A DNA stretch of 64,000 bases from NCBI GenBank assembly GCA_040754455.1, contig JBFMCP010000001.1, positions 1 to 64,000 on the forward strand, given 5' to 3'. Source of the DNA: Nitrospirota bacterium. GTDB lineage: Bacteria > Nitrospirota > Thermodesulfovibrionia > Thermodesulfovibrionales > Dissulfurispiraceae. The position numbers were made by a program, and so were the translations under genes. Below the pieces are notes generated by a model. The model was not told the origin of the DNA and searched no databases. It saw only the letters and a program-made list of their open reading frames with translations. Below, piece after piece: positions 39,192 to 59,784 of the stretch (its first letter is position 1; each line of letters begins with the position of its first letter).

Positions 39192-39237
39192 TGCTGCCTC
39201 CTCTTGGCCGTTATATTCGTTCATAAGGCACAACCGC

Positions 39238-39474: not shown

Positions 39475-39492
39475 AGACCCTCCTTGTTCTGC

Positions 39493-40347: not shown

Positions 40348-40589
40348 CCCTCCTCCTTTACCGGCGGCATTCGGTGTGTACTTCAAAAGATAAAAGCACC
40401 TCACCTGCTTATGCTGTGCAGGATACTGTTAGGAAGTATGCTCCTGTTGAGCTAGAAAGATTGCTGGATACTGTAAAGTCCGGATGATCTTTGGAAGATG
40501 GAGATCCTGACGTATATTCCTACTTAAATTTGAGCATAAAAAAAGTCGAAAAGCAATATGGAATTTGCATTAGGGTGTGCATACACACC

Positions 40590-41487: not shown

Positions 41488-43224
41488 TCATCCATTAAGA
41501 ATAGTTATTTCTTTTTTCAGCAAATCTGCATACTGTTGAACAAGCCCTCTGAACTTTGCGCCGTCTGGTTGCATGCCGAGGTCTCTTGCTGCGAACGTAG
41601 CGTATCCCAACCGATACGCCAGATAGGCAATACGGTAGAAGGACAGCCGTGCAGCGATATCCCTGTCATGAGACATGCGCTCATAGCGTTCGACAAGATA
41701 TGCGCTCCCCTTCTGATCGAGGCCGAACTCTATAATGGTTCCTGCGATGTCCCAGGCGATATCCTGGCAACAGGGGAAAAACTGATCTGCATGGTGGTCA
41801 ACGGTGTCTGTTTTTATGTACCCTCGTTCGGTAAGCAGCCATTCATTCGGCAGCATGCGTCCGTCGAGGGCAACAGGAGGGCTCTCCTCGAACAGGGAAC
41901 GGAACATGCCGAGCTTCCTCAGCCGGTGGACCCACTCTTTTCCGAGCCCCAGATAGGTGTTCCTTCTGATCATCCGGGCCATCTCGCTGAACTGCATGTC
42001 GCGGTCCACGGTAAAATTCTTTTTAAGATAAGAAAGATACCGGGCTACAGCGCTCAGCAGGCTTTCGCTTACGTCGTCACGCGTAAGGGGCCGCCCCTGA
42101 ACGAAAGGCGATGCTATAAAGCCATTGGCAAAGCCGATGGCAGGCGGAGAGAACCCTGCGTCGGCCAGAATGCTGGCGCGTTCGAATTTAACCCTTCCAT
42201 AACGCCCCAGTCCTGCAAATTTCACCAGGAGATCCCGGTGATTCCTGCAGAGGAATTTGCGTTTCTCATGGTGGGGATGCACAGCGGGGAAATCTCTCTC
42301 CCCTTCATAGAAAAGGCTACGCCACATCCCGGCCGAAATATTGCAGCAAGTGCCGTCTGAAAAAGGGCCCATGATCTTTCCGCTTTGATAGAGCACCTCT
42401 TCGAAGCCGGCAGTGTATTTTTTATGCCGCAGCCAGCGCTCACGGGCGCGTTCCGAAATAAAGTTCCGGCCGTCGGGCTCCCAGCTCGGGAAGAGCACAA
42501 TGCGTGTATCGGCAATGCCGGTTTCCGAGAGCTTTTGTGCAGCGCAGCAGATCGAGGATCCGCTCATGCCTGGTCCCTCATCGATAATGAGAACATACGC
42601 GTACGGCAGCGACCGCAGCACCTCCTCAAGCGTATGCTCGAGCAGGATGCGCCGGTCAAAAGGATCACCGCGCGGACGGAGAGTGCAGGACTCAACACGA
42701 TATCCCTCTTCCTCGAGCACGGCTGCAACGGCGAGAGACAGACTGGTCCCTATGCTCCGCAGTCCGATGCAAAGAACACTTTCTCTTGTATGCTCTTTCG
42801 CAAACGCTTTGGCTGCCTCGAGATAGGTTTCGGGATAGAGCCCGTAATGGGCGTATCCCTCATGTTCCCGAATGCAAATCATTTCCGGGATACTAAGAAA
42901 GTAGAGTTTCCGGAGAGCGCTGCGCAACTGTGTGCCCCAGTATTCCTCCTGCTCCCGCTTTCCTTCCCATGACGCGGAAAAGATATGTCCTACAATAAGG
43001 CCCGTTTTTCTAAGCTCATGCAGAATATCCCTGCTGCCATCCCGTTCCGGACAGAGGGCATCAGTAACAGCAGACTCGAAGACTCCCCACTCGATCAGCA
43101 GCTCGACGGCAGCTTCATGGGTAAACGTGCCGCCCTCTCCAAACTGCTCTGCGAGTGTCCTGATACGAGAGAGGCACGTCGCAGAGGCAACGCGCTGTTC
43201 CTGTTTTCTGTATACGATCATCAT
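41488..43224 (-). CDS. Uncharacterised PRTase-like + phosphotransferase/kinase-like protein
   Basis: IGLRSIGTSL and VLIIDEGPGMSGSS (PRPP-loop-like); C-half LVKFAG, DGRMLPNEW, KTD..DH, DIAWDIAG. Confidence 0.7.
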   Translation of the reverse strand: MMIVYRKQEQRVASATCLSRIRTLAEQFGEGGTFTHEAAVELLIEWGVFESAVTDALCPERDGSRDILHELRKTGLIVGHIFSASWEGKREQEEYWGTQLRSALRKLYFLSIPEMICIREHEGYAHYGLYPETYLEAAKAFAKEHTRESVLCIGLRSIGTSLSLAVAAVLEEEGYRVESCTLRPRGDPFDRRILLEHTLEEVLRSLPYAYVLIIDEGPGMSGSSICCAAQKLSETGIADTRIVLFPSWEPDGRNFISERARERWLRHKKYTAGFEEVLYQSGKIMGPFSDGTCCNISAGMWRSLFYEGERDFPAVHPHHEKRKFLCRNHRDLLVKFAGLGRYGRVKFERASILADAGFSPPAIGFANGFIASPFVQGRPLTRDDVSESLLSAVARYLSYLKKNFTVDRDMQFSEMARMIRRNTYLGLGKEWVHRLRKLGMFRSLFEESPPVALDGRMLPNEWLLTERGYIKTDTVDHHADQFFPCCQDIAWDIAGTIIEFGLDQKGSAYLVERYERMSHDRDIAARLSFYRIAYLAYRLGYATFAARDLGMQPDGAKFRGLVQQYADLLKKEITILNG

Positions 43225-44264
43225 CAGGCTCCTTCAATCAGCTTCCGATATTGTTCGATATAATGCTGCGTCATACGTTCAGCGGAAAATCGTCTCCGTG
43301 CGACCTCTCTGCATACTTCAGGATCGATCACTGCAGCAGCAATCATCGCCTCTGCCATTTCCTGCTCGTCATTCACGAGAAAACCCGTTTTTCCGTGCTC
43401 GACAATCTGCGCAAGCGCTCCTGAGGGAAAGGCAATCACCGGTGTTCCGCAGGCCAGCGCCTCCATTGCGACGAGTGAGCTCGTCTCCGGCGCCAGGCTC
43501 GGGACGAGGAGGCAGCGCGCAGCAGAGAGGAACCTCCGTTTCCGCTCAAAATCAAGCGGACCTATGAACACCCTCCGCTTATCTTCCAGTCTCGGCAATA
43601 TCATATTTATGAAGTAGCGCTCATGCGCCTCATAGCGGAACACCTCGCCTGCTAGGATCAGAGGGACATTTGCGCTCCGTGCCGCATTGAGGGCAATATG
43701 GAAACCCTTTTCAGGACATATCCTCCCCACTGCGAGGGCAAAACGACGCTTGCTCACCGGCGTTTCGAGACGCTCGACCGGCACCCCGTTCTCGATATCG
43801 GGCAGAAGTGACATGCCCTGAGGGCATGCGGCGCGCTGTGAGGCAGAGACGCAGTGAAAATAAGTCCCTGGACGGTCGGTAAGCAGTGCATCCCGGTCAT
43901 ACCATCCGGGAGGGAGATGCAGCGTCACTATCACCGGCGTCCCGGGGGGCGGCAGGTAATGGTTGAAATCGATGCCGTGGAGATGCACAAGGTCGACGTC
44001 CCACCGACGGAGCGCCTCTTCGATCGCTCTCCGGTGATATTCGCGGGCACGATGGCAGGCAGCATCATCGAGGAGGCCTTGCACCTTTGGCGTCGCAATG
44101 AGCTTGCCTCGTACAGCAGACCCCTCGCAGGCCAGCACGATCGACCGGTGCCCTGCGCGCACAAGCGCTTCATCAATGAGCCCAAGGACCTGTTCTGCAC
44201 CGCCTGCGGCATCAGGCGTCACTGGCGCCAGCGGGTAGGCCACATTAAGTACGGTAAGGCTCAT
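43224..44264 (-). CDS. GT4-family glycosyltransferase
   Basis: GGAEQ, GRICPEKG, ETSSLVAMEALACGTPV; start ATG 44264. Confidence 0.92.
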   Translation of the reverse strand: MSLTVLNVAYPLAPVTPDAAGGAEQVLGLIDEALVRAGHRSIVLACEGSAVRGKLIATPKVQGLLDDAACHRAREYHRRAIEEALRRWDVDLVHLHGIDFNHYLPPPGTPVIVTLHLPPGWYDRDALLTDRPGTYFHCVSASQRAACPQGMSLLPDIENGVPVERLETPVSKRRFALAVGRICPEKGFHIALNAARSANVPLILAGEVFRYEAHERYFINMILPRLEDKRRVFIGPLDFERKRRFLSAARCLLVPSLAPETSSLVAMEALACGTPVIAFPSGALAQIVEHGKTGFLVNDEQEMAEAMIAAAVIDPEVCREVARRRFSAERMTQHYIEQYRKLIEGA

Positions 44265-44274
44265 TCTCCCCCCC

Positions 44275-45159
44275 TCAGGTATAGCGCTGCACCATGCGGG
44301 CGCAGAATTCGGCATACTCCTCGACATTTTTGGGCGGACTTGTATGGTGAGGATGAATGCCACACGGCTCGGGAGTGAAGCAAAACGTGAGCGTCACCTC
44401 GAACTCGTCAAGGGCCTTCATCTGACGGTCGAACCAGGCATCGGCATGAGGCCTCAAACTGTCAGCCCAGCTGAGGCCGGTGCGCAGGTGTCGCACGCCG
44501 AGCTTGCGCAGCCAGCGCACCGCGTCGTCCAGGCGATGGTCCTCGAAGTGGAACCACTGACAGATGCCGAAGTGAGGCGTATATTCATGGAATTGGGAAA
44601 GCGCACGTTTCGGGACCCCGTCTTCGCGCAGCAGCCCCATATAGAAATGGCGATAATACGACGAACCTTCGGCCTCGCGATGGCGCGTGGTCGCGGGCCA
44701 TGCCCGCGGGAGGTCGAAGAGGCTGTACCAGTGGATGCGGTGCGCCTGTCCGATCAGGAGCTCAGCCGTGCGCCGCAGGCCGAATTCCTGGACCTCTTCC
44801 GCTCCGAACGTCGAAACGCCGACCTCCGATACCCAGACCGGAAGCGCAGTGATCGCCTGTATTTCTTTGAGCTTCTCCGGCCATTCATGAATGGTCCAGT
44901 GATTCCAGTCCAGAGGAAAGCCGTGCACGGCAACAACATCGGTATAATCGAGCACACCCTTAGCCTTCATATTGGCAATGAAGTTTGGATCGATCGGTGA
45001 TATCCCCCCAAGAACGCGTAGGAGCCACGGGTTCTCTGCAGCAACCGCTTCGGCAGCGGTCTTCACCATATTCGCATAGATTTCCCACTCCGGGTCAAGG
45101 TGAAAGTCCCAATGCGAGAGGTTGTTGGGTTCATTCCAGAGCATAACCGCCTCGATCAT
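44275..45159 (-). CDS. Clan GH-A ('beta-xylosidase'-annotated type) glycoside hydrolase-like protein, circularly permuted
   Basis: WNEP at the N-terminus, VHGFP, WVSEVG, HWYSL, then GICQWF/LRTGLSW. Confidence 0.8.
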   Translation of the reverse strand: MIEAVMLWNEPNNLSHWDFHLDPEWEIYANMVKTAAEAVAAENPWLLRVLGGISPIDPNFIANMKAKGVLDYTDVVAVHGFPLDWNHWTIHEWPEKLKEIQAITALPVWVSEVGVSTFGAEEVQEFGLRRTAELLIGQAHRIHWYSLFDLPRAWPATTRHREAEGSSYYRHFYMGLLREDGVPKRALSQFHEYTPHFGICQWFHFEDHRLDDAVRWLRKLGVRHLRTGLSWADSLRPHADAWFDRQMKALDEFEVTLTFCFTPEPCGIHPHHTSPPKNVEEYAEFCARMVQRYT

Positions 45160-45911
45160 GAGAACACCCCTTTCCGCTCACCCCGGCGGCAGATAAAGAC
45201 CTCCTCTTCGGGATGATCGATGATATCGAAGCCCGCACTGCGGAGCATCGCCTCGACACAGGCACGGTTCGGCAGCCACCAGTTGGTGGGGTCGCCGGAA
45301 TATTTTCCCTCGATAAAATGCATCTTGGGGAAATCAGGGCGGTCGAAGATCCCGATCTCCTCGAAAGGATAATCATCCTGGAGGTGGGAAACGGTCCGGC
45401 TGCCGCGCAGCATGGACTGGAATACGAAGAGGTTACCGACCGCATGCTCATACAGGAGATCCAGCGCGAGGAGTGGATGGCGCAGGTGATAAAAGACCCC
45501 CATGAAGAGGACGATATCGAACGTCCTTCCCAGCTTCGCCACATCGTAGACCGAGAGGTGCAGCAGGTCGATGGCGACGCCGCATACTTCAGCGGCGAAG
45601 CGGGCCTGTGCGAGGTAGTCCTCGTCGGCATCAATGCCGAGGACATAATCGGCGCCGCGCCGCTTCATTTCGATCGAGTAGAAACCGGCATTGCACCCCA
45701 CATCGAGCACTGTCATCCCGCGGAGGTCGGAAGGGATGGCATGGGCAAAGCGGCTCCATTTTATTGCAGGGTAGTCGCCGAGGAAGTGATGAGGCGCCGT
45801 CTCTATCCCCTTAAGATTGATGTTATGGAACCATTCTCCGAGATCGCGTACACGGGCCCGGATCTGCTCCGGCGTCAACGCAGACGGTGCTGTAGAAGCC
45901 ATATGTCCCAT
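45156..45911 (-). CDS. Class I SAM methyltransferase, TIGR04290-like
   Basis: WFHNINL, LDVGCNAGFY, MGVFYHLRHPL, DPTNWW.PN. Confidence 0.85.
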   Translation of the reverse strand: MGHMASTAPSALTPEQIRARVRDLGEWFHNINLKGIETAPHHFLGDYPAIKWSRFAHAIPSDLRGMTVLDVGCNAGFYSIEMKRRGADYVLGIDADEDYLAQARFAAEVCGVAIDLLHLSVYDVAKLGRTFDIVLFMGVFYHLRHPLLALDLLYEHAVGNLFVFQSMLRGSRTVSHLQDDYPFEEIGIFDRPDFPKMHFIEGKYSGDPTNWWLPNRACVEAMLRSAGFDIIDHPEEEVFICRRGERKGVFS

Positions 45912-45937
45912 TGATTCTTTCTCCTTTACCTAACCTA

Positions 45938-46024
45938 CGTTTCGAGCTCCACGTTACGGCAAAAGAAAAATCCAGCAATGTTGTTGTCCTTAGACCTGAA
46001 ACTTGGAACGCACAACTTGAAACT
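45938..46024. repeat. Degenerate bipartite heptamer repeat (CTGAAAC family)
   Basis: acctgaa acttgga acgcaca acttgaa ac, with an opposite-sense degenerate arm near 45938. Confidence 0.45.
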
Positions 46025-46750
46025 TCATTTCATGGTGCTGAGCAGCCTTATTGCTTCGCGGTACCCGTTGATGGTCCCCACGTCGACGTAGGAGCTTCCA
46101 TGGCGCACGCCGAGGACCACTCCCCCTCTTCTTATGTATTCATTGACAAGCGTCCCGAAGTATTCATCGCTCCGGCCGCGCTCATGCCAGAGTGCATATA
46201 AATCGTGAAGGATACCACCGTTGAGTTTAAAGGCACCCCATATCCATGACGAGCGGGCCTGCGGCTGTTTCACCTGGATCTCGATAACACGGCCATCGCC
46301 ATCGGTTACCACGGCATCGAAGAATTCGGGGCGTTCCACAGGGAAGAGGAGAAACGAGAGCAGGGAATCGCTCAATGAACAGAGACCGTTCTCAGGAAAC
46401 CAGATCGTATCAGGCAGACCGACGATCACCGCTTCTTCGCGGTGGATCATCGGCACGGCCCGGAAAATGGCATCACACAGTCCCGCAGGACGGGGCTGCA
46501 CTGCATAACAGATATGCGTCTCATGGATCGTGCCGCCGTAATACTCCAGGATATCCGACTTCCCCGGCGATATGACAAAGCAGATTTTTGTGGCACCGCC
46601 GAGTATCATGCGTTCGACGAGATATTCGCTCACCGCGCGCGGCCTCTCGATCCCGCCGTCGCGGCGGCTGCCTACGGGAAGGAGCTCTTTGGAAAATGCC
46701 AACGGCTGTATTCTGCTGCCGGCCCCTGCAGCCGGAATAATTCCCCACAT
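46025..46750 (-). CDS. Sugar-phosphate nucleotidyltransferase (RmlA-like)
   Basis: IIPAAGAGSR..SKELLPV, Q..P.GL.DA, GLPD, YVDVGT. Confidence 0.9.
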   Translation of the reverse strand: MWGIIPAAGAGSRIQPLAFSKELLPVGSRRDGGIERPRAVSEYLVERMILGGATKICFVISPGKSDILEYYGGTIHETHICYAVQPRPAGLCDAIFRAVPMIHREEAVIVGLPDTIWFPENGLCSLSDSLLSFLLFPVERPEFFDAVVTDGDGRVIEIQVKQPQARSSWIWGAFKLNGGILHDLYALWHERGRSDEYFGTLVNEYIRRGGVVLGVRHGSSYVDVGTINGYREAIRLLSTMK

Positions 46751-46792
46751 GTCTCTACCCCTTGTAGCAGTAATGTTATTTTTGCTTCGTAC

Positions 46793-47863
46793 TCATCGTC
46801 GATACGCCGTTTCCAGTATGCGCTCGAGATCGTCGGCCCGGTTGTCTGCCGTATGTTCGCTGAGTGTACGCTCACGTGCTGCACGGGCGATCCTCAGCCG
46901 CTGCGCTTCGGACATCTCGAGGGCGCCGATAATCTCTTCAGTTGCCTGGGCGGTAATAATTTCTGATCCCGGTGCATAAAACCGATCGAGGCCTTCCCAT
47001 GTATCGCTCAGGATGGGGACGCCGCAGGAGGCCGCTTCAAAGAGCCTTCCCGACGGACAGTATCCCATATCGGCCATCGCACGACGCGTCACATTCAACG
47101 TAAACGACGAAGAGCAGTAGAATGCAGCATGCTCCGGCGGGGGAACGTGCCGTACATAATAAATGTTCTTTGTCCATGGAAACCCTTCCGGGTACAACGA
47201 GCCCCCTATGATGAAACGCCGGTCCGGCAATCTGCGTGAAGGTTCGATGAAAAGCATCTCGAGCAGACGCTGCCGGTCTTCTGCATACGTGCCGAGATAG
47301 GATAGGTCGGCATGGTATGAAGGGGTGCCGGTAACCGGATAGTGCACTGCGGGATCGACGCTCCCATAGAGAGGAGCGACGTGGCGGGCTCCCAGCCGGT
47401 TGCAAAGCTCATCCAGCGCTTTCCCTCCGGTATAGCTGAGCACCAGATCGAAATCACGAAAGCCGCGCGGCCCTATATACGCCACTGGCTGTCCTGAGCG
47501 AAGCCGCTCAAGAGTAACCGGCGTATCAAGGTCGTAGAACGCACGGAGCGGAGCGGCGGAAGAGAGCACGAGATCTGAAGCCGTAATCCCATCGGGACAA
47601 TAGGAGGTCACCATGCCAACATCGGCATCAGAGAGATGCTTTCGTGCAATGGGCAGCACATCGGTCCATTCCGCGTAAAGGTAAAGCTCCACTCCGGGGA
47701 GATCGACGAGATCGCGATGGGAGGCATAATAGGGGACATCCCTCTCGAAAAAGACGATGCGGTGCCCGCGCCGCGCCAGCGCACTGCAGAGGCCGCGCCA
47801 GATCGTCGCATGCCCGTTGCCCCAGGAGGAGCTGATGGTAAGGCCGAAAATAACCAGCTTCAT
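46793..47863 (-). CDS. CgeB-family glycosyltransferase
   Basis: SSSWGNGHAT, FYDLDTP, LGTY, LNVTR, PSGRLFEAA; start ATG 47863. Confidence 0.9.
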   Translation of the reverse strand: MKLVIFGLTISSSWGNGHATIWRGLCSALARRGHRIVFFERDVPYYASHRDLVDLPGVELYLYAEWTDVLPIARKHLSDADVGMVTSYCPDGITASDLVLSSAAPLRAFYDLDTPVTLERLRSGQPVAYIGPRGFRDFDLVLSYTGGKALDELCNRLGARHVAPLYGSVDPAVHYPVTGTPSYHADLSYLGTYAEDRQRLLEMLFIEPSRRLPDRRFIIGGSLYPEGFPWTKNIYYVRHVPPPEHAAFYCSSSFTLNVTRRAMADMGYCPSGRLFEAASCGVPILSDTWEGLDRFYAPGSEIITAQATEEIIGALEMSEAQRLRIARAARERTLSEHTADNRADDLERILETAYRR

Positions 47864-47873
47864 ATTCCTCTCT

Positions 47874-48566
47874 TCAGGAAGCAGGGTTCGGGACCCCGTC
47901 CGTCTCCATAATCTGTTTAAAGTGCCGCAGTTCTTCTTCCACCTGACGCCCGGTAATCCCTTTGAGCACCTTCGCGACGGCAACACCGGCTTTACCAGCG
48001 GGGGGATAATATCTCATCTTTAACGTCACTTCGGTGCCGCGATTGCCCGGCGCATCCTTGAAGCGGACCGAGCCTTTATGTCGGATATCGGCATTCTCCG
48101 GCGTCCGCCACTTGATCACTTCGTTCTCTCGCTCTTCGGTTATCTCCGTATCCCATTCGATCCTGAGCCCTCCCGGCGCCTCTTTGGCGACCCAATGAGA
48201 GCGGCCGTTCGACGAGCGCACTGCAGCAAGGTGCTCCATAAAGAGCGGAAGGTTTTCAAAGTTACGCCAGAAACGGTACACCTCCTCACGGGGACGGTCC
48301 ACTGTAATACTCTTCTCAATCTTAATTCTTTCACGAAGGCCGATGCCGGCAGCATGAATACCGAGGGCGTGGTAGACCGGGCAGTATCCGGTCTTTCCAC
48401 GGTAGACAAGATAACTCCCTGCGAGAGCCATTGCCCTCCCGCGCCGCGAGTGCTTGGTCATGCCGTAGAGCGCAAGCAGGCTTCCGCTGATCATCGATAT
48501 CCATCGCTCCCTGGCCCCGACATTCATCTCCCGGGTCCTCTTTGACACCACTTGTGCTGACCTCAT
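47874..48566 (-). CDS. DUF2892 + SRPBCC (cyclase/dehydrase) protein
   Basis: MNVG..ERW, TGYCPVY, FWRNFENLP.FMEHL, GSVRF..AP..RGTEV. Confidence 0.88.
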   Translation of the reverse strand: MRSAQVVSKRTREMNVGARERWISMISGSLLALYGMTKHSRRGRAMALAGSYLVYRGKTGYCPVYHALGIHAAGIGLRERIKIEKSITVDRPREEVYRFWRNFENLPLFMEHLAAVRSSNGRSHWVAKEAPGGLRIEWDTEITEERENEVIKWRTPENADIRHKGSVRFKDAPGNRGTEVTLKMRYYPPAGKAGVAVAKVLKGITGRQVEEELRHFKQIMETDGVPNPAS

Positions 48567-48627
48567 ATCACACCTCCTTGGATGGCTTCACCGTCGGATA
48601 CTCGCGCTTGTTCACATCGGGAGGCGC

Positions 48628-49719
48628 TCACCGCCGCACCTGTCCGGCATGCCATTCCTGCACGTATCCTTCGAGCTCGGCAGCACGGTGCGCTGCCGTA
48701 TGGCTGGCGAGGACGCGCGCGCGGGCGCGCGCGCCGAGCCGGCTCCGCTCCTCCCCGGAAAGCTCGCGGAGATAGCGCAGCGTATCCTCGGCAGAACGTG
48801 AAACTAGTATTTCCGTCCCCGGCACAAAAAACTGCTCGAGCCCCTCCCAGTAATCACTGATGATGGGAGTGGCACATGCCGCTGCCTCGAAGAGCCGCAC
48901 GCTCGGAGAAAAACCGGCGCGAACCATATCGGCGCGAGTAATGTTCAACGTAAATTTCTGGGCATTGTAGAAGCGACAATGCTCGGCGGGCGACAGGTGC
49001 TCGATTCGTTCCACATTGTCGGGCCACGCAATGATATCGGGGTACTGCGGTCCGGCAACGACATAGCGGCCGCTGCCCCACCGCCGGGCAGGCTCAAGCA
49101 TGAGCTGCTCGAGAAGCGGCTGCCGGTCATCGCTGTACGTGCCGAGGTATCCGATGTCCCATCGATATTCGGACGCAGCAGGAAAGTACAGCTCAGGATC
49201 TACGGAGCAGTAGAGCGGTCGTGCCATGGGAGACCGGTACTGTTCCTGGATGAGGCCGAGCAGGGGGCCGCCGGTAAAGGAGAGATACATATGATAGCGC
49301 GGAATCAATGTTGCCGACAGGTAGCTCACGCCGCCGTGTGCGAGCTTTGCCATGGTGACCGGTGTGTCGATATCGTAGAATGCAGTGATACCCTGTGCCG
49401 TCGTAACAACCCATTCGCCGACAGCAATTCCCTCCGGCACATAGGACCCGACGATCACCAGGTCCGCCTCTTTGATTGCAGGGCCGAAACGTTTTTTGAG
49501 GTCCGAGACGCTGAAATAGAGCTCTGTGCGGCCGTAGGGAGGTTTTGGGAGGTCCCGGTTCTCTGCATACCACGGCACCTCCCGCTCAAGAAAAAGGACC
49601 TGGTGCCCCCGGTCAGCAAGTCCACGAACCAAACCGCGGTAGGTCGTCGCATGCCCGTTGCCCCATGAAGAGGTTATCGATAATCCCAGAATAACGATCT
49701 TCAGTGCTGATAGAGTCAT
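48628..49719 (-). CDS. CgeB-family glycosyltransferase
   Basis: TSSWGNGHATTYR, FYDIDTP, LNITR, PSVRLFEAA; start ATG 49719. Confidence 0.9.
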   Translation of the reverse strand: MTLSALKIVILGLSITSSWGNGHATTYRGLVRGLADRGHQVLFLEREVPWYAENRDLPKPPYGRTELYFSVSDLKKRFGPAIKEADLVIVGSYVPEGIAVGEWVVTTAQGITAFYDIDTPVTMAKLAHGGVSYLSATLIPRYHMYLSFTGGPLLGLIQEQYRSPMARPLYCSVDPELYFPAASEYRWDIGYLGTYSDDRQPLLEQLMLEPARRWGSGRYVVAGPQYPDIIAWPDNVERIEHLSPAEHCRFYNAQKFTLNITRADMVRAGFSPSVRLFEAAACATPIISDYWEGLEQFFVPGTEILVSRSAEDTLRYLRELSGEERSRLGARARARVLASHTAAHRAAELEGYVQEWHAGQVRR

Positions 49720-50816
49720 AAACAGCTCCCGGCGCTTGGACATCGGGCATCGAGGATATCTTCGAGCTGTGCTGCACGATGGGCATAGGTATGTTCGGCG
49801 AGAATACGCCGGTATGCCGCTTTTCCTATGGACGACGCGCGTTCAGAGGTAAGGGCACAGATATGCTCGACAACCTCGTTTCCGTTGCTGGCCGTAAGCA
49901 CTTCGCGACCCGGATCGAGGAACATCTCGATGCCGTCCCAATAATCGGTAATGATGCAGGCGCCTGCGCCGGCTGCTTCGAAGATGCGCGTCGGCGGCGA
50001 AAAGCCGTACTGTGCCATGCTCTCCCGGTTGATATTCAGCACTGCCGTCGGTGAGCAGTTAAAGGCATTGTGATCGCAGGTGTAGACGTGCCCGACATAT
50101 TTTATATTGTCGAGGACCGGTGCATCCCAGCCGTTTCCGCCTAGGATAAAACGACGCGTCGGGAGTTCGGCAGCGGCACTGACGAAAAATTCACGGACGC
50201 GGGCCTCGCGGTCAGGGAGACGATTGCCGATAAAGCCAATATCCCCTTCGAACCTCGGATCAGGTGCTACGGGATAGTGTGTCGAGGGGTCGAGGGCATT
50301 ATAGATGGGGATACATTCCCGGGCGCCGAAGGACCTGTAGGTTTTCACTACAGGGTCACCGCCGCCGTAGGTCAGCACGAGATCATAGCGAGGGACAAGT
50401 GCACGGAAGGGGTCGTCGGTATTCATGCGCATGCGATCGAGCGTTGCCGGCGCATCCACATCCCAGAAGAGGGCAAGCGCGCCAGGCCTTTTTACTTGGA
50501 GCACGGCTGCTTCAAGGAGCTCATCGAATACGCCTACCCCGCTCGCCTTGACGATCAGGTCCGCTCGCCGCGCCTCCTCGAGTGCACGATACACACCTTC
50601 GGTGTCCTCCGCTGTATACACAACAACCCGGGCCCAGGGAGGATCGGGGATATCGCGGTGCTGTTGCCGGCCGTAGGCATCGGGCTCATAAAAAGTAACC
50701 GAATGTCCGAGCTCGTGAAGTGCACGGATAATGCCGCGATAGTAGGTTGCAGCACCGTTCCAGTACGCCGACACAAGGCTCGAGCCAAAGAAGGCGATCG
50801 TCAGTCCCTTTTTCAT
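49716..50816 (-). CDS. CgeB-family glycosyltransferase
   Basis: SAYWNGAATYYRG, FWDVDAP, GNRLPDRE, LNINR, PPTRIFEAA. Confidence 0.9.
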   Translation of the reverse strand: MKKGLTIAFFGSSLVSAYWNGAATYYRGIIRALHELGHSVTFYEPDAYGRQQHRDIPDPPWARVVVYTAEDTEGVYRALEEARRADLIVKASGVGVFDELLEAAVLQVKRPGALALFWDVDAPATLDRMRMNTDDPFRALVPRYDLVLTYGGGDPVVKTYRSFGARECIPIYNALDPSTHYPVAPDPRFEGDIGFIGNRLPDREARVREFFVSAAAELPTRRFILGGNGWDAPVLDNIKYVGHVYTCDHNAFNCSPTAVLNINRESMAQYGFSPPTRIFEAAGAGACIITDYWDGIEMFLDPGREVLTASNGNEVVEHICALTSERASSIGKAAYRRILAEHTYAHRAAQLEDILDARCPSAGSCL

Positions 50817-50837
50817 GTACCTGCTCCTAGCAAAAAT

Positions 50838-50900
50838 AAATTCTAAGCACGAAATTCTGAAATGTTTCGGATTTGTTTTTATGTTCAGGATTTAGTATTT
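50838..50900. repeat. Degenerate bipartite AT-rich heptamer repeat
   Basis: aaattct aagcacg aaattct gaaa ... tttcgga tttg ... ttcagga tttagta ttt. Confidence 0.45.
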
Positions 50901-52027
50901 ATCCTCCTATTTGCCCTTTGTGGTGTGCTCTTATGTTCTCCCTCAAGCTCCTTATAAATGGAGAGCAGTTCGTCGATGCGGTGCGCGCACGTATGCCGCT
51001 CCCGTATGGTCTTCAATCCGTGCTCAGAAAGGGCGCGCGCCATCTCCCTGTCCTGCAACAGGGCTTTCAAGCATCGTTTCATCTCCCTGCCGTTCCGTGC
51101 AACAAGGAAGTCCTTTCCCGGGGTGAATAGTCCCTCATCATCATTCCACGGCGCACAGACCAGCGGGATGCCGCACGCAAGGGCCTCAAAGGGCCGTATC
51201 GTCGGAATACCCGGGAGCGCTTTGACATAGGGGCGTCGCGGGATATGGATCGTTATGCTGAACCGGGCAAAGACGTCCGGCACCGCGTAGTTGGGAAGCC
51301 AGCCGCTATAATGTATTCCTGCCTCCTCGATTGTTTTCAGCGCGCTGTGCGGATACCGCACCCCGTGCATCTGCGCCTTCAGACCGAGCGCCTTGACCGG
51401 CTCGATCAGAAACTCCTGCAGCTCAGAAGTCCGTTCGTCATCGCCCCAGTTCCCGATCCATACCAGGTCTCCTTCCCTTCTGCGCCGGTGTATCGGACGA
51501 AAGACCCGTGTATCCGCTGCCTCGTGCCAGGTCCATGCCCGTTCAGCCCATCCCTTCTCAATATAGAGCGTGCGGATGACTTCCCCAAAGGCCAGGACGC
51601 CGTCATAATGAGAGAGATCATAGACTGCCATGCTTTCAGGATCGGTGACCGAGCGGTGGTGCGTATCATGGAAAAAAAGCCTGAATCCCCCCACACGCGC
51701 CCGGTATTCGCCGATACGTCGTATCAGCTCATGCTCATTCCATTCATGGACGATCACCAGATCGGCCCCCTGAAGGACGCGGTCGAGGTCGAGCGCCTTG
51801 AGGTCGTACCGTGTGCTCTTGATCCAGGGATACACAGTCCGTAATCCGCGAAGCGGCTCGAGACCGTGCGCTGCCAGGAGATTCCTGAGACTCCAGGCAT
51901 CCCGGGGCTCGTAGACAGCGACTTCGTGTCCCCGCGACAGGAGCTCTGCAGCGATGCCGCGCAGGAAATGTGCGTTGCCGTGATTCCAGTCTGACAGCAG
52001 CGAATGATAAAACAATATTACACGCAC
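50885..52027 (-). CDS. CgeB-family glycosyltransferase
   Basis: SDWNHGNAHFLRG, FHDTHHR, GNWGDDER, PTIRPFEALACG. Confidence 0.9.
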   Translation of the reverse strand: MRVILFYHSLLSDWNHGNAHFLRGIAAELLSRGHEVAVYEPRDAWSLRNLLAAHGLEPLRGLRTVYPWIKSTRYDLKALDLDRVLQGADLVIVHEWNEHELIRRIGEYRARVGGFRLFFHDTHHRSVTDPESMAVYDLSHYDGVLAFGEVIRTLYIEKGWAERAWTWHEAADTRVFRPIHRRRREGDLVWIGNWGDDERTSELQEFLIEPVKALGLKAQMHGVRYPHSALKTIEEAGIHYSGWLPNYAVPDVFARFSITIHIPRRPYVKALPGIPTIRPFEALACGIPLVCAPWNDDEGLFTPGKDFLVARNGREMKRCLKALLQDREMARALSEHGLKTIRERHTCAHRIDELLSIYKELEGEHKSTPQRANRRINTKS

Positions 52028-53157
52028 ACAGTATTCTCCTTTATAGAACGTCTCTTCTCCGCCATCATGGCCTGATAGACCGCCAGGTATCCTGATACCA
52101 TGCGATGCGGCGTGAACTCGAGTGCTCTCATGCGTGCCTTTGCCGCCATTGCAGCACGGTACGAATCATCGCGGATCAGTGCTTTCAGCGCCTCCCTGAG
52201 CATTTCCGTATCATCGGGATGAACAAAGAGGGCGGCATCGTCCCAGATCTCGCGCAGGCTCGGTATATCGCCAAGGACAAGGGCGCAGGCCGAAAGACCT
52301 GCTTCGAGTATAGAGAGCCCGAAGGGCTCATAGTACGCAGGAAGCGCATAGATCGATGCACGGGCAAGCCATGAGGCGATTGCCCTAGCCGAGAGGCGGC
52401 CCAGCCGCCGGAAGTTGTCCGTCCGCGCGGCGCCGTGCTCATCAGCCCCCGAGGGATACTGCTCCTCACCCGCACTATAGACGGGCCAGGAGAGAGAGGG
52501 AGCAATCCGATGCAGTGCCGCAACATTTTTTGCCCTGTCCCACAGACGCCCTGCAGTGAGCACGAACGGCTCTTTGATCCCCGGCAGAAAGAGCTCGGGA
52601 TCCCTTCCATTCGGCACGACCATCTCCCGGACAATCGGCCCATACTGCAGGTGCAGCATATCGAGCATCGCATGGGTCGGCGCAATCACAAAATCTGCTG
52701 CATGCAACCCCTGCGTAACCGCTTCCCGATACGTCTCCCACTCCCCGGGCGCAGGCTCATTCCTGACCGCCTGCCACCACGACAGGACACAGGAATGTCC
52801 GACGACCAGCTTCGGTGCGCGGAACGAGAGTACGCCATGCGCATATCCGTTAAGGTGAACAATGTCGGGGTCGATTTCCTCCTCGAGCGAGAGCAGCCAT
52901 GCTCCTGCGCTCACGATATCGTCCCAGGGCTGTTCCATCCATTCGAGCTTGAAGGCACTTTCATAAACCTTTATGTCAGGTATCCGGGCAATTTCCTTCC
53001 ACTGTTCTTCAGTTAGAGGTGCGCCCATCGTGGCAAGTACCACTTCGATGCCATGCTTCCAGAGCATATGTGAAAGCTCGACAGCATAGGTCCAGACGCC
53101 TCCCATCGTATCGGCAGTCATGAGGATCCGCTCGGGGAGTGGCGCTCCGTTACTCAT
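52018..53157 (-). CDS. GT4-family glycosyltransferase
   Basis: MTADTMGGVWTY, HSCVLSWW, GRLWD.AKN, YEPFGL..LEA. Confidence 0.92.
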   Translation of the reverse strand: MSNGAPLPERILMTADTMGGVWTYAVELSHMLWKHGIEVVLATMGAPLTEEQWKEIARIPDIKVYESAFKLEWMEQPWDDIVSAGAWLLSLEEEIDPDIVHLNGYAHGVLSFRAPKLVVGHSCVLSWWQAVRNEPAPGEWETYREAVTQGLHAADFVIAPTHAMLDMLHLQYGPIVREMVVPNGRDPELFLPGIKEPFVLTAGRLWDRAKNVAALHRIAPSLSWPVYSAGEEQYPSGADEHGAARTDNFRRLGRLSARAIASWLARASIYALPAYYEPFGLSILEAGLSACALVLGDIPSLREIWDDAALFVHPDDTEMLREALKALIRDDSYRAAMAAKARMRALEFTPHRMVSGYLAVYQAMMAEKRRSIKENTVCV

Positions 53158-54449
53158 CGCGTTCCACCCACTTCCAGCTCCTCCAGAGAGAGAAACTGTC
53201 TATCCTGAATATCACTGAAGACGCGATTACGGTGCACATAATCATCATGAGCCCGCTCCCAGGCCCGGTCATCGGGAGCTCCCCAATGCTTCCGGTACTC
53301 TGCCGAACCGGGATAGGGGAAGAGGGGAACCGGTTTGTTCGCCCACACCCCGAACCGGCGGAGGTGTTGTCTCCATTGTTCAATGGCCCCGCGCTCATCG
53401 GTATGCGCATCCATTAATGTCGCCTGTACGAACGGCACGCCCCGCTTCGCATGCAGCAGAAGCCGGGTAAGCTCTTCCGTCGACATCCGGCAGCTTTTGT
53501 TGAGCCGCATCCGGCCTTTTTCGGTGATGCTCTCGACCCCCGCCTCTATGGAAACGCACCCTGCCTCACCGAGCAGATCGAGCATTTCAGGCGACCATAG
53601 ATCGATCCTGGTCTGGATGCCGAACTTCACCGGACGCTCTTTCAGTGCAGAAAGCAGCGCTGCATCGGGCATGAAGAGCTCATCGATAAAGTAGAGATAT
53701 TCGATGCCGTGATCAAGGAGGCCGTCAAGCTCGCTGAGCACAGTTGCAAGAGGCCTTTTACGAAACGGCCCTCGGAAACTTTCCCGTGCGCAAAACGAAC
53801 AATGGTAGGGACAGCCCCGTGAGGCTTCCATTTCAGCGCCGGGACCGGCAGGTGCGGCATCAAAGCGGTGGTGATGGTGCCTGTGTTTCCCGATCATACG
53901 CCGCGGCCAGCTGAGCGCAGAAAGCGCGGCAACATCAGCAACATGCGGTGCGCCCTGCACCCGCACCTCTTCGCCCTCTCTCAAACAGAGTGATGAAATG
54001 GTGTGCCATGCAGCGCGATCGGTACCGGCGAGCCGGGAGATGACTTCTTCGGCTTCGCCCATGATGACCGCGTCAACATCGAGCTTCTTCAGCACCGCAC
54101 GCGGAGTTACCGAGCCGTGTGGTCCTATGGCGACAATAGCCTTGGTAAATTCCTTGACCGCGCTCACAGTCTCCTGCGGAATGCGGAGTTCGGGAGGAGG
54201 ACAGCGCCAGAAGAGATAGCTCGGCGCCGTTGTTACGACCGTCAGATCGGGACTGAATACTTTCGCCTTCTGCCGCAGAATCCCGCACGTAAGCCCCTCC
54301 AGATGTCCATCATGCAGGAGCACTTCGTGTCCGGCGGCTTCGAGGAGTTTTTGGGCATACCCGTATTCGAGCGGCAGATGGGGTTCGCGGCAACCGAAAT
54401 AAATACTGCCGTCATAGGTCCAGTGGGGATTAATCAGCAAGCACTTCAT
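53154..54449 (-). CDS. B12-binding-like/radical SAM protein, TIGR04295 (rhizo-twelve)-like
   Basis: GSIYFGCREPHLPLE, YLFWRC, HRHHHHRF, RGCPYHCSFC, YFIDE, EAGVES. Confidence 0.85.
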   Translation of the reverse strand: MKCLLINPHWTYDGSIYFGCREPHLPLEYGYAQKLLEAAGHEVLLHDGHLEGLTCGILRQKAKVFSPDLTVVTTAPSYLFWRCPPPELRIPQETVSAVKEFTKAIVAIGPHGSVTPRAVLKKLDVDAVIMGEAEEVISRLAGTDRAAWHTISSLCLREGEEVRVQGAPHVADVAALSALSWPRRMIGKHRHHHHRFDAAPAGPGAEMEASRGCPYHCSFCARESFRGPFRKRPLATVLSELDGLLDHGIEYLYFIDELFMPDAALLSALKERPVKFGIQTRIDLWSPEMLDLLGEAGCVSIEAGVESITEKGRMRLNKSCRMSTEELTRLLLHAKRGVPFVQATLMDAHTDERGAIEQWRQHLRRFGVWANKPVPLFPYPGSAEYRKHWGAPDDRAWERAHDDYVHRNRVFSDIQDRQFLSLEELEVGGTR

Positions 54450-56538
54450 CGTAGATTCCCTCGTTCACCACCCGGCCGGCGGACTGGCTGCGTGACATGA
54501 CCAGCCATTCATAGAGCTTCCCCACGCCCTCTCTCACCCCCACGCGGGGCGACCAGCCGGTCATGGCCTTGAACTTCCTCGAATCGGACACATAGTAGCG
54601 CTGGTCGCCATGGCGCCATTCGTCGAAATGGATATCGGGCCTCGCTTCATGGAGTACCTCAATGAGATCGATCAATTCGAGAAGGCTCAGGGTGTTGGCC
54701 GGACCTCCACCGATATTGAACGCCTGGCCAGAGAGGGCTTTTATATGCTCTTGGGCGAGCAAGAAAGCATTGACCAGGTCATCAACATAAAGCACATCCC
54801 GCACCTGCATACCGTCACCGTAAATCGTAATCGGGCGGTCGCTGATGGCGCTGAGCAGGAAGTGTGCAATCCACCCCTGGTCTTCGGTGCCCATCTGGTG
54901 AGGTCCATAGATACAGCTCATGCGGAACACCGTCGCCGGGATATTGAAGGTACGGGCATAATCGAGCACATACTGGTCCGCCGCTCCCTTTGAACATCCG
55001 TAGGGACTGCAGAAATCGATCATACAACGCTCGCTGATGCCTGACAGACGGGTCAGGAAATCGATAGGCTCGTACCGGTCGCCGTACCTGCGCAGGTAGA
55101 CATCCTGAAGGCTCCCGTACACCTTATTGGTTGAAGTAAAGACGAGCGGAGGAGGATCGTTCAGGGAACGCAGCACCTCGAGAAGGTTGATGGTACCGCG
55201 GACATTCACCGCGAAATCGTGCGCAGGATTGGCGATACTGGTGGTGACGGCGACCTGGGCGGCGAGATGGAATACCTGCTTCGCTCTCTGCACTTCCCTG
55301 CGTAGGGAGGCGGGGTCGCCGATATCAGCGATCTCCGCCTGCACCAGATCCCCATAGGTCTCCTGCAGCCACCGAAGGTTCTGTTCTACCCTGGGCCTCG
55401 ACAGATTATCGAAGATGACCACCGGTTGCTCGTTCTTCAGCAGGCGGTGCGCGAGGTTCGTTCCGATGAATCCTGCACCGCCGATGATAAGCGTCGGCTT
55501 TTGTCGCTGCGCCGGTTTTGTCGCACGTTTCATCACCTCTTGTACCGCCTCAATACCCCCGCTCTCCCAGAGACGGAAGAGCAGCTTCGGCCTCCCGTCG
55601 GCATACTTGAGACCCAGATGATAGTTCCGCTCATCGGCACGGATATCATCGGGAACAGCGGTCTCCCGGTCGAGATCATGGAGCGTTGACCAATACATGC
55701 GGCTCACCGGTGCCGCGATCGCTTTCAGAAAACAGCGCGCCTGTCCTGCCTCGCTGTGTTGCCATGTCGAATAGCCGGTTCCCGTAATCCAGAGCTCCCG
55801 TCTCAAACTGAAAGTGTCGAGCAGATCACGAATCTCGACGATCTTTGCACCCCACTCGTCCCAATCAAACTCCCACGTCCCGGGATAACCGTGGATGCCG
55901 ACAGCATCAATATAGGAAAGGACGCCGCGCTCGCACAACAGGCGGAGCCATCGCAGATCAGTCGGGCACATGCCACAGAGCACCGTGTTCTTATTGCTGT
56001 CCTTTGCCCTGTAGGCGGCGCCGGTGATCATATCCGAGAAAATGAGCCACTCAGGATCGAGCCTCCGGTCCCAGCTCATGAGCCTGTTCGGTTCGTTCCA
56101 TAACTCAATCCAGTCAAAATACTTTCCCGCCCTGGAGATAACATCGTCAATGAAACCGGCAAAGACACTCGGCTCGCGCGGCGGCGCGGAGGTTCTGGGT
56201 ACAAGGCCGAGCGATGGTGGTGTGGCGGTAACGCAGGGGAGGACATTGATGTCCCCGGCAAGACGCTGGAGCAGCCAGAGATACCACTCCATACCTTCGG
56301 CAGTCTGCCACTCAGCCCAGGATATCCCAGTGCGAAGCTCGGTAATCCCAAGGACCTTACAATCAGCGATGACCTTTTCAACACGGTCATGTTCACCGGG
56401 GCGAAACCATTCGCTGATGCCGATAACCGGCTGTACCACAACAGCACCCGGTTGATGACCTTGCCCGGTCAGGGCCGGCTGTTGTGGTCGTCCCCGCTTA
56501 TCCTTTATTTTAGTATTTATGTAATGCACCTCGCTCAT
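54430..56538 (-). CDS. GH-A-like domain fused to NAD-dependent epimerase/dehydratase (CDP-tyvelose epimerase-like)
   Basis: N-half GISEWF, LRTGISW, WNEPN, IHGYP; C-half GGAGFIG, AAQVAV, STNKVYG, YGCSK, DQGWIAHF; start ATG 56538. Confidence 0.88.
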   Translation of the reverse strand: MSEVHYINTKIKDKRGRPQQPALTGQGHQPGAVVVQPVIGISEWFRPGEHDRVEKVIADCKVLGITELRTGISWAEWQTAEGMEWYLWLLQRLAGDINVLPCVTATPPSLGLVPRTSAPPREPSVFAGFIDDVISRAGKYFDWIELWNEPNRLMSWDRRLDPEWLIFSDMITGAAYRAKDSNKNTVLCGMCPTDLRWLRLLCERGVLSYIDAVGIHGYPGTWEFDWDEWGAKIVEIRDLLDTFSLRRELWITGTGYSTWQHSEAGQARCFLKAIAAPVSRMYWSTLHDLDRETAVPDDIRADERNYHLGLKYADGRPKLLFRLWESGGIEAVQEVMKRATKPAQRQKPTLIIGGAGFIGTNLAHRLLKNEQPVVIFDNLSRPRVEQNLRWLQETYGDLVQAEIADIGDPASLRREVQRAKQVFHLAAQVAVTTSIANPAHDFAVNVRGTINLLEVLRSLNDPPPLVFTSTNKVYGSLQDVYLRRYGDRYEPIDFLTRLSGISERCMIDFCSPYGCSKGAADQYVLDYARTFNIPATVFRMSCIYGPHQMGTEDQGWIAHFLLSAISDRPITIYGDGMQVRDVLYVDDLVNAFLLAQEHIKALSGQAFNIGGGPANTLSLLELIDLIEVLHEARPDIHFDEWRHGDQRYYVSDSRKFKAMTGWSPRVGVREGVGKLYEWLVMSRSQSAGRVVNEGIYDEVLAD

Positions 56539-57653
56539 ACGGTCAACCCCCGTCCGGCGAGTTCTGCACACGCCTCATCAACCCGGTCGAGGGCAACCCT
56601 TCCCTCAAACCATTCACGCAACTCGATCAATCCCTCTTCGAGCGTTACCTGCGGCTCGTACTGCAGGATGTCCCGGGCCCGCGAGATATCGGCGAAGCAG
56701 TGGCGTATATCGCCCATCCGGTATTTCCCCGTAATTTCCGGAAAGAGGCGCTTCCTTCCGAACACCGCAGCCATACGTTCGGCGACTTCCAGGATGGTAT
56801 ATTGATAGCCGCTCCCTATATTGAATACCTGGTACGCAGCCTCAGGCACTTCCAGTGCATGCCGGCACGCCCGTGCAACGTCATAGACGCTTACAAAGTC
56901 CCGCTGCTGATACCCGTCCTCATACACGAGCGGCGGCTTGCCGTTGAGAATACGCGCGGCAAAGATCGCCAGCACCCCGGTATAGGGATTCGAGGATGCC
57001 TGACGGGTTCCGAAGACATTGAAGAACCTCAGCGCCACTGTCGGAATGCTGTACGCCTGGCCGACCATCATGCAGGCACGTTCCTGATCGTACTTTGAAA
57101 GGGCATAGATGGACGAGAGAGAGGGCGTCTTTGTTTCCGGCGTTGCAATGGGAATCAACACCTCACCCTCACTGCTGTGGATCTCCCATATTCCCGACTT
57201 CAACTGCTCAAGGGTGCGCTTCATATCGGGATAGAGTCGTCCGTCGGGTGCGCAGTACAGCCCCTCGCCATAGATGCTCATGCTCGAGGCAACGACGAGA
57301 CGCTCGACGGGGCGCTTCGTCAGGGCTTCGAGCAGTACTGCCGTCCCCCTGCAGTTCACATCAGTATACTTTTCGATTTGATACATGCTCTGGCCGACGC
57401 CCACTGCCGCAGCGAAATGAAATACCGCATCGATGCCGCTCAGCGCACGCCCTACCGCATCAGGATCCCTGACATCTCCGATGATCAGTTCCACGTCAGG
57501 ATGCAGATACTCAGGCCTCTTTCGCTCCGGGCCATGAACCTGCACAGAAAGATTATCAAGTGCGCGGACACGGTATCCTTTGTTAAGCAGTTCGTCTGCG
57601 AGATGCGATCCGATAAAACCGGCTCCGCCGGTGATCAAAATATGCTTACCCAC
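56535..57653 (-). CDS. NAD-dependent epimerase/dehydratase, first gene of the glycan operon
   Basis: TGGAGFIGSH, VGVGQSMY, SSMSIYG, YALSK, NPYTGV; GTG start with AGGAGG. Confidence 0.92.
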   Translation of the reverse strand: MGKHILITGGAGFIGSHLADELLNKGYRVRALDNLSVQVHGPERKRPEYLHPDVELIIGDVRDPDAVGRALSGIDAVFHFAAAVGVGQSMYQIEKYTDVNCRGTAVLLEALTKRPVERLVVASSMSIYGEGLYCAPDGRLYPDMKRTLEQLKSGIWEIHSSEGEVLIPIATPETKTPSLSSIYALSKYDQERACMMVGQAYSIPTVALRFFNVFGTRQASSNPYTGVLAIFAARILNGKPPLVYEDGYQQRDFVSVYDVARACRHALEVPEAAYQVFNIGSGYQYTILEVAERMAAVFGRKRLFPEITGKYRMGDIRHCFADISRARDILQYEPQVTLEEGLIELREWFEGRVALDRVDEACAELAGRGLTV

Positions 57654-58069: not shown

Positions 58070-58789
58070 TTATCTCCCCTTTCTCACGCGCTTATAGAGT
58101 ATGGGCAGCAGGGTAAAAAGAACCACGAGCAGGAGCGCGGCGATGAACCGTGCAGAGAGCAGGTCGTTGACGGACTGGATCGTGCCGAGCTGTTTGCCAG
58201 CAAAGGAGTAGACCGCTGCACCGGGGAGCATACCCAAAAAGGTGGTCCACAAAAATGTTCTGTAGGTAATTCCGGTGAGGCCCGCAAGCATATTGACAAG
58301 GAAAAAGGGGAGCACCGGGACGACCCTCAGAATAATCAGATAGATATAGCCGTTTCGTTCTATCTCCCTGTTGAACTTTATCAATTGGCTTTTGTAGTGC
58401 GATTGTATTTTCTTGCCGGCAATATACCGCGCCGCCCAAAAAGAAAGGGACGCTCCTGCGGTTGCTCCTATTCCGGTGTACACTGTTCCTAAAACGACGC
58501 CGAAGAGGAACCCTCCGGCAAGGGTCAGCACAAGAGCGCCGGGTACCAGAAAAGCGGTAGAAATGAAGAGTCCGATATAGATTCCGACGGCGAGGAGGTA
58601 ATGTCCTTCCACATACGCCTTGAGAAATGCGCTGTTCTGCTTTATGTTCTCGAAAGTCAAATATTCGCTGAGTCCCGCGGCTCTCAGAACCCCTATGATC
58701 ATCAGCACGAGGACGAGCAGGATAATCTCTTTTTTTGATTTATAGAGCCACCCGTAGGAAGCCTTCCTTTTATCTCCGGCAGTTCTCAT
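58070..58789 (-). CDS. TVP38/TMEM64 (VTT/DedA superfamily) membrane protein
   Basis: PGA.VLTLAGGFLFG, LRVVPVLPF, TFLGMLPG. Confidence 0.9.
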   Translation of the reverse strand: MRTAGDKRKASYGWLYKSKKEIILLVLVLMIIGVLRAAGLSEYLTFENIKQNSAFLKAYVEGHYLLAVGIYIGLFISTAFLVPGALVLTLAGGFLFGVVLGTVYTGIGATAGASLSFWAARYIAGKKIQSHYKSQLIKFNREIERNGYIYLIILRVVPVLPFFLVNMLAGLTGITYRTFLWTTFLGMLPGAAVYSFAGKQLGTIQSVNDLLSARFIAALLLVVLFTLLPILYKRVRKGR

Positions 58790-59008
58790 TGCAGTTTTCT
58801 GTGATGCTGTTGTTATTTAAGTCTATATCAGTTAGTGCCACGGTGCAATGCAGTGCAACGATGCTCTTTTCTTACCACCGCGACTCGGGAATTCCGCAGT
58901 CGATTGCAGCAAATATCCTTCGCGTGTACGTCCTGAAGGTTGAGGTGACGTGCTCTTTCACTGTATAATAGTTGCAGAGCATTTCTTTGTTGTTCTGTCT
59001 GTACCATA

Positions 59009-59755: not shown

Positions 59756-59784
59756 GCTGCCGCACCCTCGCGGGAGGGATAACA

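Follow-up and report, generated by a model that had tools for sequence, protein, structure and literature searches.

The stretch of DNA analysed here (the window: 64,000 nucleotides from the start of contig JBFMCP010000001.1 of a Nitrospirota bacterium) contains two genes whose products include a (beta/alpha)8 barrel resembling the glycoside hydrolases (GHs) of clan GH-A. Both are on the minus strand, 9.3 kb apart within a tightly packed cassette (Table 1). One barrel has the canonical strand order and is followed, in the same polypeptide, by an NAD-dependent epimerase domain; the other is a stand-alone protein, referred to below as the permutant, in which beta4-alpha8 come first (residues 1 to about 193) and beta1-alpha3 follow (residues 195-294). 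A first-pass annotation of the window had proposed that the stand-alone protein is a natural circular permutation rotated at about strand 4. Both open reading frames (ORFs) are present with every motif it listed in the order it gave, and the proposal is borne out by the alignment of the doubled sequence, by colinearity with PslG of Pseudomonas aeruginosa and by a structure model: the stand-alone protein is a (beta/alpha)8 barrel that has undergone natural circular permutation.

The sequence evidence for the rotation is as follows. BLASTP aligns the two proteins in two non-colinear blocks, residues 5-184 of the stand-alone protein with about 144-318 of the fusion (33%, E 3e-24) and residues 195-292 with about 37-136 (28%, E 2e-10). 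When the stand-alone sequence was doubled and aligned with residues 37-318 of the fusion, a single unbroken diagonal resulted (score 338 versus 237 for the unrotated sequence), with a lone one-residue gap at the junction and the best rotation points at residues 184-194. The last 100 or so residues of the permutant, aligned alone with the fusion, score 117 (500 shuffled sequences, 32 +/- 4.7, maximum 55). Active-site motifs common to the two forms are NEP, HGFP, E, YxxL/HWY and YxxG; a profile-profile comparison of the forms returned the beta4-8 block only. PslG and the fused barrel align colinearly (E 3.2e-7); the order of the latter is therefore the canonical one, and it is the stand-alone protein that is permuted.

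The AlphaFold model of the permutant is a single domain that is barrel throughout (predicted local distance difference test [pLDDT] 93.4, predicted template modelling score [pTM] 0.90), with eight core strands, the final three of which are supplied by the tail. The possibility that its last 95 or so residues form a separate, non-barrel domain, which the first-pass annotation had named as grounds for abandoning the idea, is rejected by this one-domain model and by VIA-align, which places the whole chain (1-294) on other TIM barrels with Z 12-14. Against PslG, the best-fitting structure of the list, only residues 1-195 superpose (PslG 156-358; root mean square deviation [rmsd] 2.4 A, 175 residues aligned), a half-length match of the kind that a sequential aligner is expected to give with a permutant. 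In the model of the whole fusion (pTM 0.87) the epimerase comes after the barrel. We also considered an assembly artefact and rejected it, because the rotated order occurs in thousands of proteins (at least 8000, the best 120 of which span 98-100% of the query), including 80 genome loci.

The cassette holds four CgeB-like and two GT4 transferases, two epimerases, one nucleotidyltransferase, and TIGR04290 and TIGR04295 proteins that score above their curated cut-offs. Its gene content agrees with that of Rhizobium etli p42b and Sinorhizobium meliloti pSymB, and we take the TIGR04290/TIGR04295 neighbourhood to be the 'rhizo-twelve' system. The stop codon of the methyltransferase overlaps the ATG of the permutant, a protein that has no signal peptide, begins seven residues ahead of WNEPN and is labelled 'beta-xylosidase' in the source databases. 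The fused epimerase is closest to CDP-tyvelose 2-epimerase (1orr; Z 46, rmsd 1.5, 42% identity), and its GxxGxxG and YxxxK motifs are intact.

Table 1. Features of the cassette in the window, in order of transcription
Feature	Position	Strand	Remarks
Second NAD-dependent epimerase/dehydratase	56535..57653	(-)	First gene of the cassette; profile match
GH-epimerase fusion	54430..56538	(-)	702 residues from an ATG overlapping the upstream stop
Canonical-order GH-A-like barrel of the fusion, probable pseudoenzyme	55555..56430	(-)	About residues 37-328 of 702; colinear with PslG
Gly253 (GGA) at the nucleophile position of the fusion	55780..55782	(-)	Aligned to PslG Glu276
C-terminal NAD-dependent epimerase domain of the fusion	54430..55500	(-)	PF01370
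TIGR04295 B12-binding radical SAM protein	53154..54449	(-)	662 bits, cut-off 400
GT4 glycosyltransferase	52018..53157	(-)	Profile match
Three CgeB-like (PF13524) glycosyltransferases	50885-52027, 49716-50816, 48628-49719	(-)	Profile match
YgaP-TM and SRPBCC protein	47874..48566	(-)	Profile match; present in few related cassettes
Fourth CgeB-like glycosyltransferase (CgeB4)	46793..47863	(-)	Profile match; usually linked to the permutant
Sugar-phosphate nucleotidyltransferase	46025..46750	(-)	PF00483
TIGR04290 methyltransferase	45156..45911	(-)	374 bits, cut-off 300
Stand-alone circularly permuted clan GH-A-like barrel	44275..45159	(-)	294 residues
Acid/base Glu10 of the permutant (WNEPN)	45130..45132	(-)	Codon located; conserved in homologues
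Nucleophile Glu112 of the permutant (WVSEVG)	44824..44826	(-)	Codon located; conserved in homologues
GT4 glycosyltransferase downstream of the permutant	43224..44264	(-)	Profile match
578-residue protein	41488..43224	(-)	No Pfam or NCBIfam match

The 578-residue protein at the downstream end recurs in 25 of 80 related loci; leads from the ESM Atlas give its C-terminal half an APH/choline-kinase-like fold and suggest a possible phosphoribosyltransferase-like part, and in some clusters it is fused to a HAD hydrolase. Two similar genes for small PHP-family metallohydrolases lie at 38033-38647 (+) and 40590-41234 (-); the second comes after the cassette, and such a gene also adjoins the cassette in loci L001, L011, L028 and L052. 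The flanks (38745-40404 and 58070-61365) carry hemerythrin-like, short-chain dehydrogenase, VTT/DedA, exo/endo-phosphatase and phospholipase D genes (profile scans covered the last three), a set that in our view resembles general-stress neighbourhoods.

The two forms differ in their catalytic residues. Glu165 of PslG is the acid/base and Glu276 the nucleophile (PMC11912335), and these align to Glu149 and Gly253 of the fusion (with the numbering offset counted by hand). The motif previously written as WIT.TG in the fused domain thus reads W-I-T-G-T-G, with Gly in place of the nucleophile Glu. An assembly or sequencing error at this position was considered and rejected: the Gly253 codon is the same in contigs of runs X2 and X4, which come from different studies (two more runs lacked coverage of the codon), and a 95%-identical relative (P0121) likewise has Gly at the nucleophile. 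In the permutant, Glu10 and Glu112 are each Glu in all 120 best homologues, and both are present in 122 of 125 distinct locus ORFs (two unparsed, one with Gln); among 120 homologues of the fusion the acid/base Glu is found in 112 and the nucleophile Glu in 105. Judged on these residues, the permutant would be the active enzyme of the window and the fused barrel a probable pseudoenzyme. The first-pass annotation had offered divided functions as one reason for keeping both barrels; a division between two active hydrolases is unlikely here, because the fused copy lacks its nucleophile. Losses elsewhere include the fusion of the cultured Solibacter usitatus Ellin6076 (P0239), with Gln at both catalytic positions and of possible use as a dead barrel for experiments, and genome G363 (L113, L275), which has two permutants and two canonical fusions, each of the latter again with Gln at both. 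In a Xanthomonas sacchari plasmid record (L123, 13580-16087) the fused barrel lies in two frames near its start, through a frameshift or a sequencing error, with both motifs present.

Both models are (beta/alpha)8 barrels, as in clan GH-A, and in both proteins the acid/base Glu lies in an N-E-P motif after beta4 (Glu10, Glu149); the nucleophile Glu at the end of beta7 is present in the permutant and absent from the fused barrel of the window. No Pfam or NCBIfam model scores above its cut-off for either GH form; the only Pfam signal of the permutant is PF11790, at 16 bits (cut-off 21). Neither window protein matches PF01229 (GH39), for which the best value among ten canonical relatives is E 0.054, in one of them. 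PslG-like GH39 enzymes have an extra beta-sandwich domain after the barrel, whereas the permutant model is barrel only and the fusion has its epimerase there. Judged on the Pfam profile and the extra domain, neither protein belongs to GH39.

Across genomes, the permutant and the canonical form are mostly mutually exclusive alternatives. The permutant led to 80 genomes; the canonical form is also present in 12 of them and absent from 68, and the complete chromosomes of Sorangium and Archangium have the permutant without the canonical form. Eight taxon samples (about 1890 genomes, centres excluded, with some overlap) contained 91 genomes with either form, of which 70 were permutant-only (a call that rests on matches covering only the beta4-8 part of the profile), 16 canonical-only and 5 held both. 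These surveys scored 5-17 candidates per genome, at which depth no canonical copy was found in the phylum-level Acidobacteriota or order-level Burkholderiales samples; a second search of the 16 canonical-only genomes, with the permutant profile and with all candidates scored, found the permutant in none of them. Each form also occurs on plasmids (146 records, 147 places), the permutant in Sinorhizobium and the fused form in Rhizobium etli/phaseoli and Xanthomonas sacchari. The earlier suggestion that the permuted and unpermuted barrels are kept side by side is thus correct for this window and fails as a rule, and the obligate heteromer proposed with it is excluded, because most permutant genomes lack the canonical form.

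Where the two forms do occur together, the canonical barrel is usually degenerate. We compared 23 canonical copies that have a permutant beside them (19 from genomes, 4 from metagenome contigs, with the L167 permutant broken into two pieces) with 17 that have none (R. etli judged from its plasmid only); both glutamates remain in 3 of the former and 15 of the latter. The full set of N148, E149, E253 and Y284, a criterion fixed after the first rows had been seen, is found in 0 of 23 versus 15 of 17. These counts exclude X. sacchari L123 and the eroded L029 barrel, the score of which was below threshold. Beside a permutant the acid/base Glu is kept in 10 of 23 copies, and many canonical copies have G, A, S or Q at the nucleophile position. 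In 35 metagenome records permutant status was judged from the flanks only; all 14 metagenome cassettes seen to end without a permutant have an intact canonical barrel. Six of eight copies fetched after the idea was formed fit it; two, from the Myxococcota genomes G1498 and G1575, miss.

The losses appear to be repeated. On a tree built with nine active-site columns removed, the degenerate state needs seven changes; for six of these origins at least one copy is confirmed to have a permutant beside it. A single origin of all 28 degenerate rows is rejected (approximately unbiased [AU] test, p 0.0014; 51 rows, a quick tree, with an earlier tree seen beforehand). The nearest contrast is between L111, with both forms and a dead canonical barrel, and its sister L314, with an intact canonical barrel only. 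Dead barrels have diverged faster relative to their epimerases than intact ones (median GH/epimerase distance ratio 1.54 in 22 copies versus 1.11 in 28), yet the ratio of nonsynonymous to synonymous substitution rates (dN/dS) is 0.08-0.23 in the seven pairs with measurable dS. No frameshifts occur in the pairs compared, and the dead state persists over whole clades (13 rows on one branch). The dead canonical barrels thus evolve under purifying selection and read, from their sequences, as conserved pseudoenzymes and not as neutral debris.

In other lineages the barrel is missing altogether. The first 80 loci yielded 16 scorable epimerase orthologues, 5 of them fused to a barrel and 11 not, and the unfused epimerases are polyphyletic (6 changes, AU p 3e-64, on an unrooted tree). 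The unfused epimerase of S. meliloti, which accompanies a permutant, is sister to the fused one of R. etli, the barrel of which is intact (support 99 in the Shimodaira-Hasegawa-like approximate likelihood ratio test [SH-aLRT]). A single Myxococcota branch (98) contains the eroded barrel of L029, the unfused epimerase of L056 and the point-mutated barrels of L229 and L231.

A joint tree of both forms with the blocks reordered (a quick tree, rooted on six more distant GH-A-like proteins) places 21 permutants on one branch (SH-aLRT 99) and 27 fused barrels on another (99), with eight stand-alone canonical relatives falling around both groups. From these separate branches we infer that the permutation occurred once, long ago, and not from the fused copy of this genome; a local duplication in this genome is rejected on the same well-supported branches. 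No duplicated intermediate (A-B-A or B-A-B) was found among the matches listed (150 representatives and 60 new long ones). The eight stand-alone canonical relatives (P0304, P0319, P0349, P0354, P0357, P0363, P0371 and P0380) are 316-346 residues long and have both glutamates; several share the permutant-like beta1 motif G-x-x-Q-W-F and may be nearest to the ancestor of the permutant. The permutant takes fusions at both of its new ends (methyltransferase, nucleotidyltransferase or PIG-L). In P0391-P0429 the partners are PIG-L deacetylase, TIGR04290-like methyltransferase, nucleotidyltransferase, polysaccharide pyruvyl transferase and inositol-1-phosphate synthase, some of these fusions stemming from frameshifted long-read calls.

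We think it moderately probable that the permutant works in the cytoplasm as a retaining glycosidase or transglycosidase and has taken over this step from the fused barrel, and that the latter persists until erosion or deletion removes it. Under this account the cassette would build a methylated oligosaccharide or glycoside, probably in the cytoplasm, and one step, most likely the trimming or editing of an intermediate or of the product, would be carried out by a clan GH-A retaining glycosidase or transglycosidase, as the fold and residues suggest. Two old lineages could fill this slot, the epimerase-fused canonical barrel and the stand-alone permutant of single origin that starts at beta4. 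Arrival of the permutant would relax selection for catalysis in the fused barrel, which would stay on the epimerase as a non-catalytic sugar-binding or structural domain, and in many lineages later erosion or deletion would leave an unfused epimerase. Clan GH-A enzymes cleave equatorial bonds and GT4 enzymes make axial ones; the target bond may therefore lie in the acceptor or be made by a CgeB-like enzyme. The wider proposition, that the permutant has spread over many bacterial phyla, displacing the unpermuted form time and again, with the dead barrel perhaps binding on the epimerase, strikes us as an even call.

Several observations weigh against displacement by the permutant. Three of the 23 co-occurring canonical copies retain both glutamates, though each is altered elsewhere in the active site; 20 of 76 other metagenome copies, in which the presence of a permutant is undecided, are degenerate; and in two Myxococcota genomes (G1498 and G1575) the canonical copy is degenerate and a permutant was not found, in cassettes that look truncated. 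A phylogeny-aware test of independent pairs was not significant and, at three pairs, was underpowered (p 0.5). Loss of the barrel, as opposed to gain by fusion, is the presumed direction of change on a tree that is unrooted. Gene linkage tells against the reading too: CgeB4 and the nucleotidyltransferase each accompany the permutant in 32 of 40 long loci and occur in 0 of 11 canonical-only 20-kb windows, so that a changed product could itself drive the decay. This would suit a module swap, in which the permutant arrived as part of an add-on module (CgeB4, nucleotidyltransferase and GT4) that altered the product, cleaves some other bond, and left the canonical barrel with its substrate gone. 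The fusion partners of the permutant point the same way (methyltransferase, nucleotidyltransferase or PIG-L, with no epimerase fusion among 63 longer matches), as does an identity of just 28-33% between the two forms. We nevertheless consider a module swap unlikely, in that the active-site motifs agree between the forms, neither module gene is found in 8 of the 40 long permutant loci (of which several, L024, L030 and L080, have the complete core cassette and an epimerase that is not fused), and the contigs of L167 and L188 pair a degenerate canonical copy with a permutant but carry no module gene.

The low dN/dS, the absence of frameshifts in the compared pairs and the clade-wide persistence of dead barrels would also be expected if the dead barrel bound, regulated or presented substrate to the permutant, such co-operation being the source of the purifying selection. 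We regard this as improbable: with 68 of 80 permutant genomes lacking the canonical form any complex would be facultative, and the selection is explained equally well if the barrel, as N-terminal domain of the epimerase, has to stay folded (the whole fusion being modelled with confidence). A predicted complex of fusion residues 33-690 with the permutant scored 0.00, which gives no verdict and is used neither way. More doubtful again, in our estimate, is a drift of the canonical barrel toward a lectin, sensor or glycosynthase-like role independent of the permutant, the association then being lineage history. Replacement of the nucleophile by Gly, Ala or Ser is the classic glycosynthase substitution, and G, A, S or Q stands there in many copies; the two degenerate copies for which no permutant was found and the non-significant pairs test fit this idea as well. 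Set against it are the seven or so separate origins, six with a copy verified beside a permutant, the lack of the complete N-E/E/Y set in every copy beside a permutant (by the retrospectively chosen criterion), and the acid/base residue, which a glycosynthase needs and which is lost as often as the nucleophile.

The permutation alone is a structural curiosity with precedent; the repeated displacement of the unpermuted form is the surprising part. If displacement is the right account, the cassette offers a natural experiment, run several times over, on whether the topology of the chain by itself alters enzyme fitness: a pseudoenzyme would have arisen about seven times, each time linked to the same trigger. 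Both topologies occur in the same uncharacterised cassette in tractable, culturable relatives (the permutant in S. meliloti, the fused canonical form on R. etli p42b), so that the equivalence of the two chain orders is testable by a swap. For annotation, the widespread 'beta-xylosidase' label covers a permuted family of predicted function, and in many GH-epimerase fusions the barrel is probably dead; the conserved catalytic residues provide a way to approach the product of a cassette present across many bacterial phyla. Searches that left out subscription journals and supplements found no literature on the TIGR04290/TIGR04295 identifiers or on five SMb locus tags, and, with CAZypedia also outside their reach, no description of circular permutation in clan GH-A, GH5 or GH39.

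Among characterised proteins, PslG (CAZy GH39; Protein Data Bank 4zn2, 5bx9 and 9g17) is the best sequence match of the fused barrel and the best Foldseek match of the permutant, and, like the predicted glycosidase of the cassette, it is encoded inside a glycan biosynthesis operon. It differs in sequence (about 22% identity) and in build, being of canonical order and about 416 residues long, whereas the permutant is a bare 294-residue barrel lacking a signal peptide; a periplasmic location is described for PslG (PMC10485009). The closest parallel for the rotation is GH70 relative to GH13 in clan GH-H, likewise a natural permutation of a glycosidase TIM barrel with the catalytic motifs kept. 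The barrel of GH70 is given as running alpha3-beta4...beta3 (PMC11046441), and going by that order the cut in our protein falls in the same sector of a different clan, one element later (beta4...alpha3). Whereas GH70 and GH13 have distinct functions, the two orders described here take each other's place in a single kind of cassette, and the unpermuted form is repeatedly inactivated. Non-orthologous gene displacement and glycosidase pseudoenzymes are general concepts, and the cassette shares with them a complementary distribution and the loss of catalytic residues from a fold that is kept. Unlike in the usual non-orthologous displacement, the displacing protein would be a topological isomer of the one displaced, and intact, point-mutated, eroded and deleted stages of the latter are all extant.

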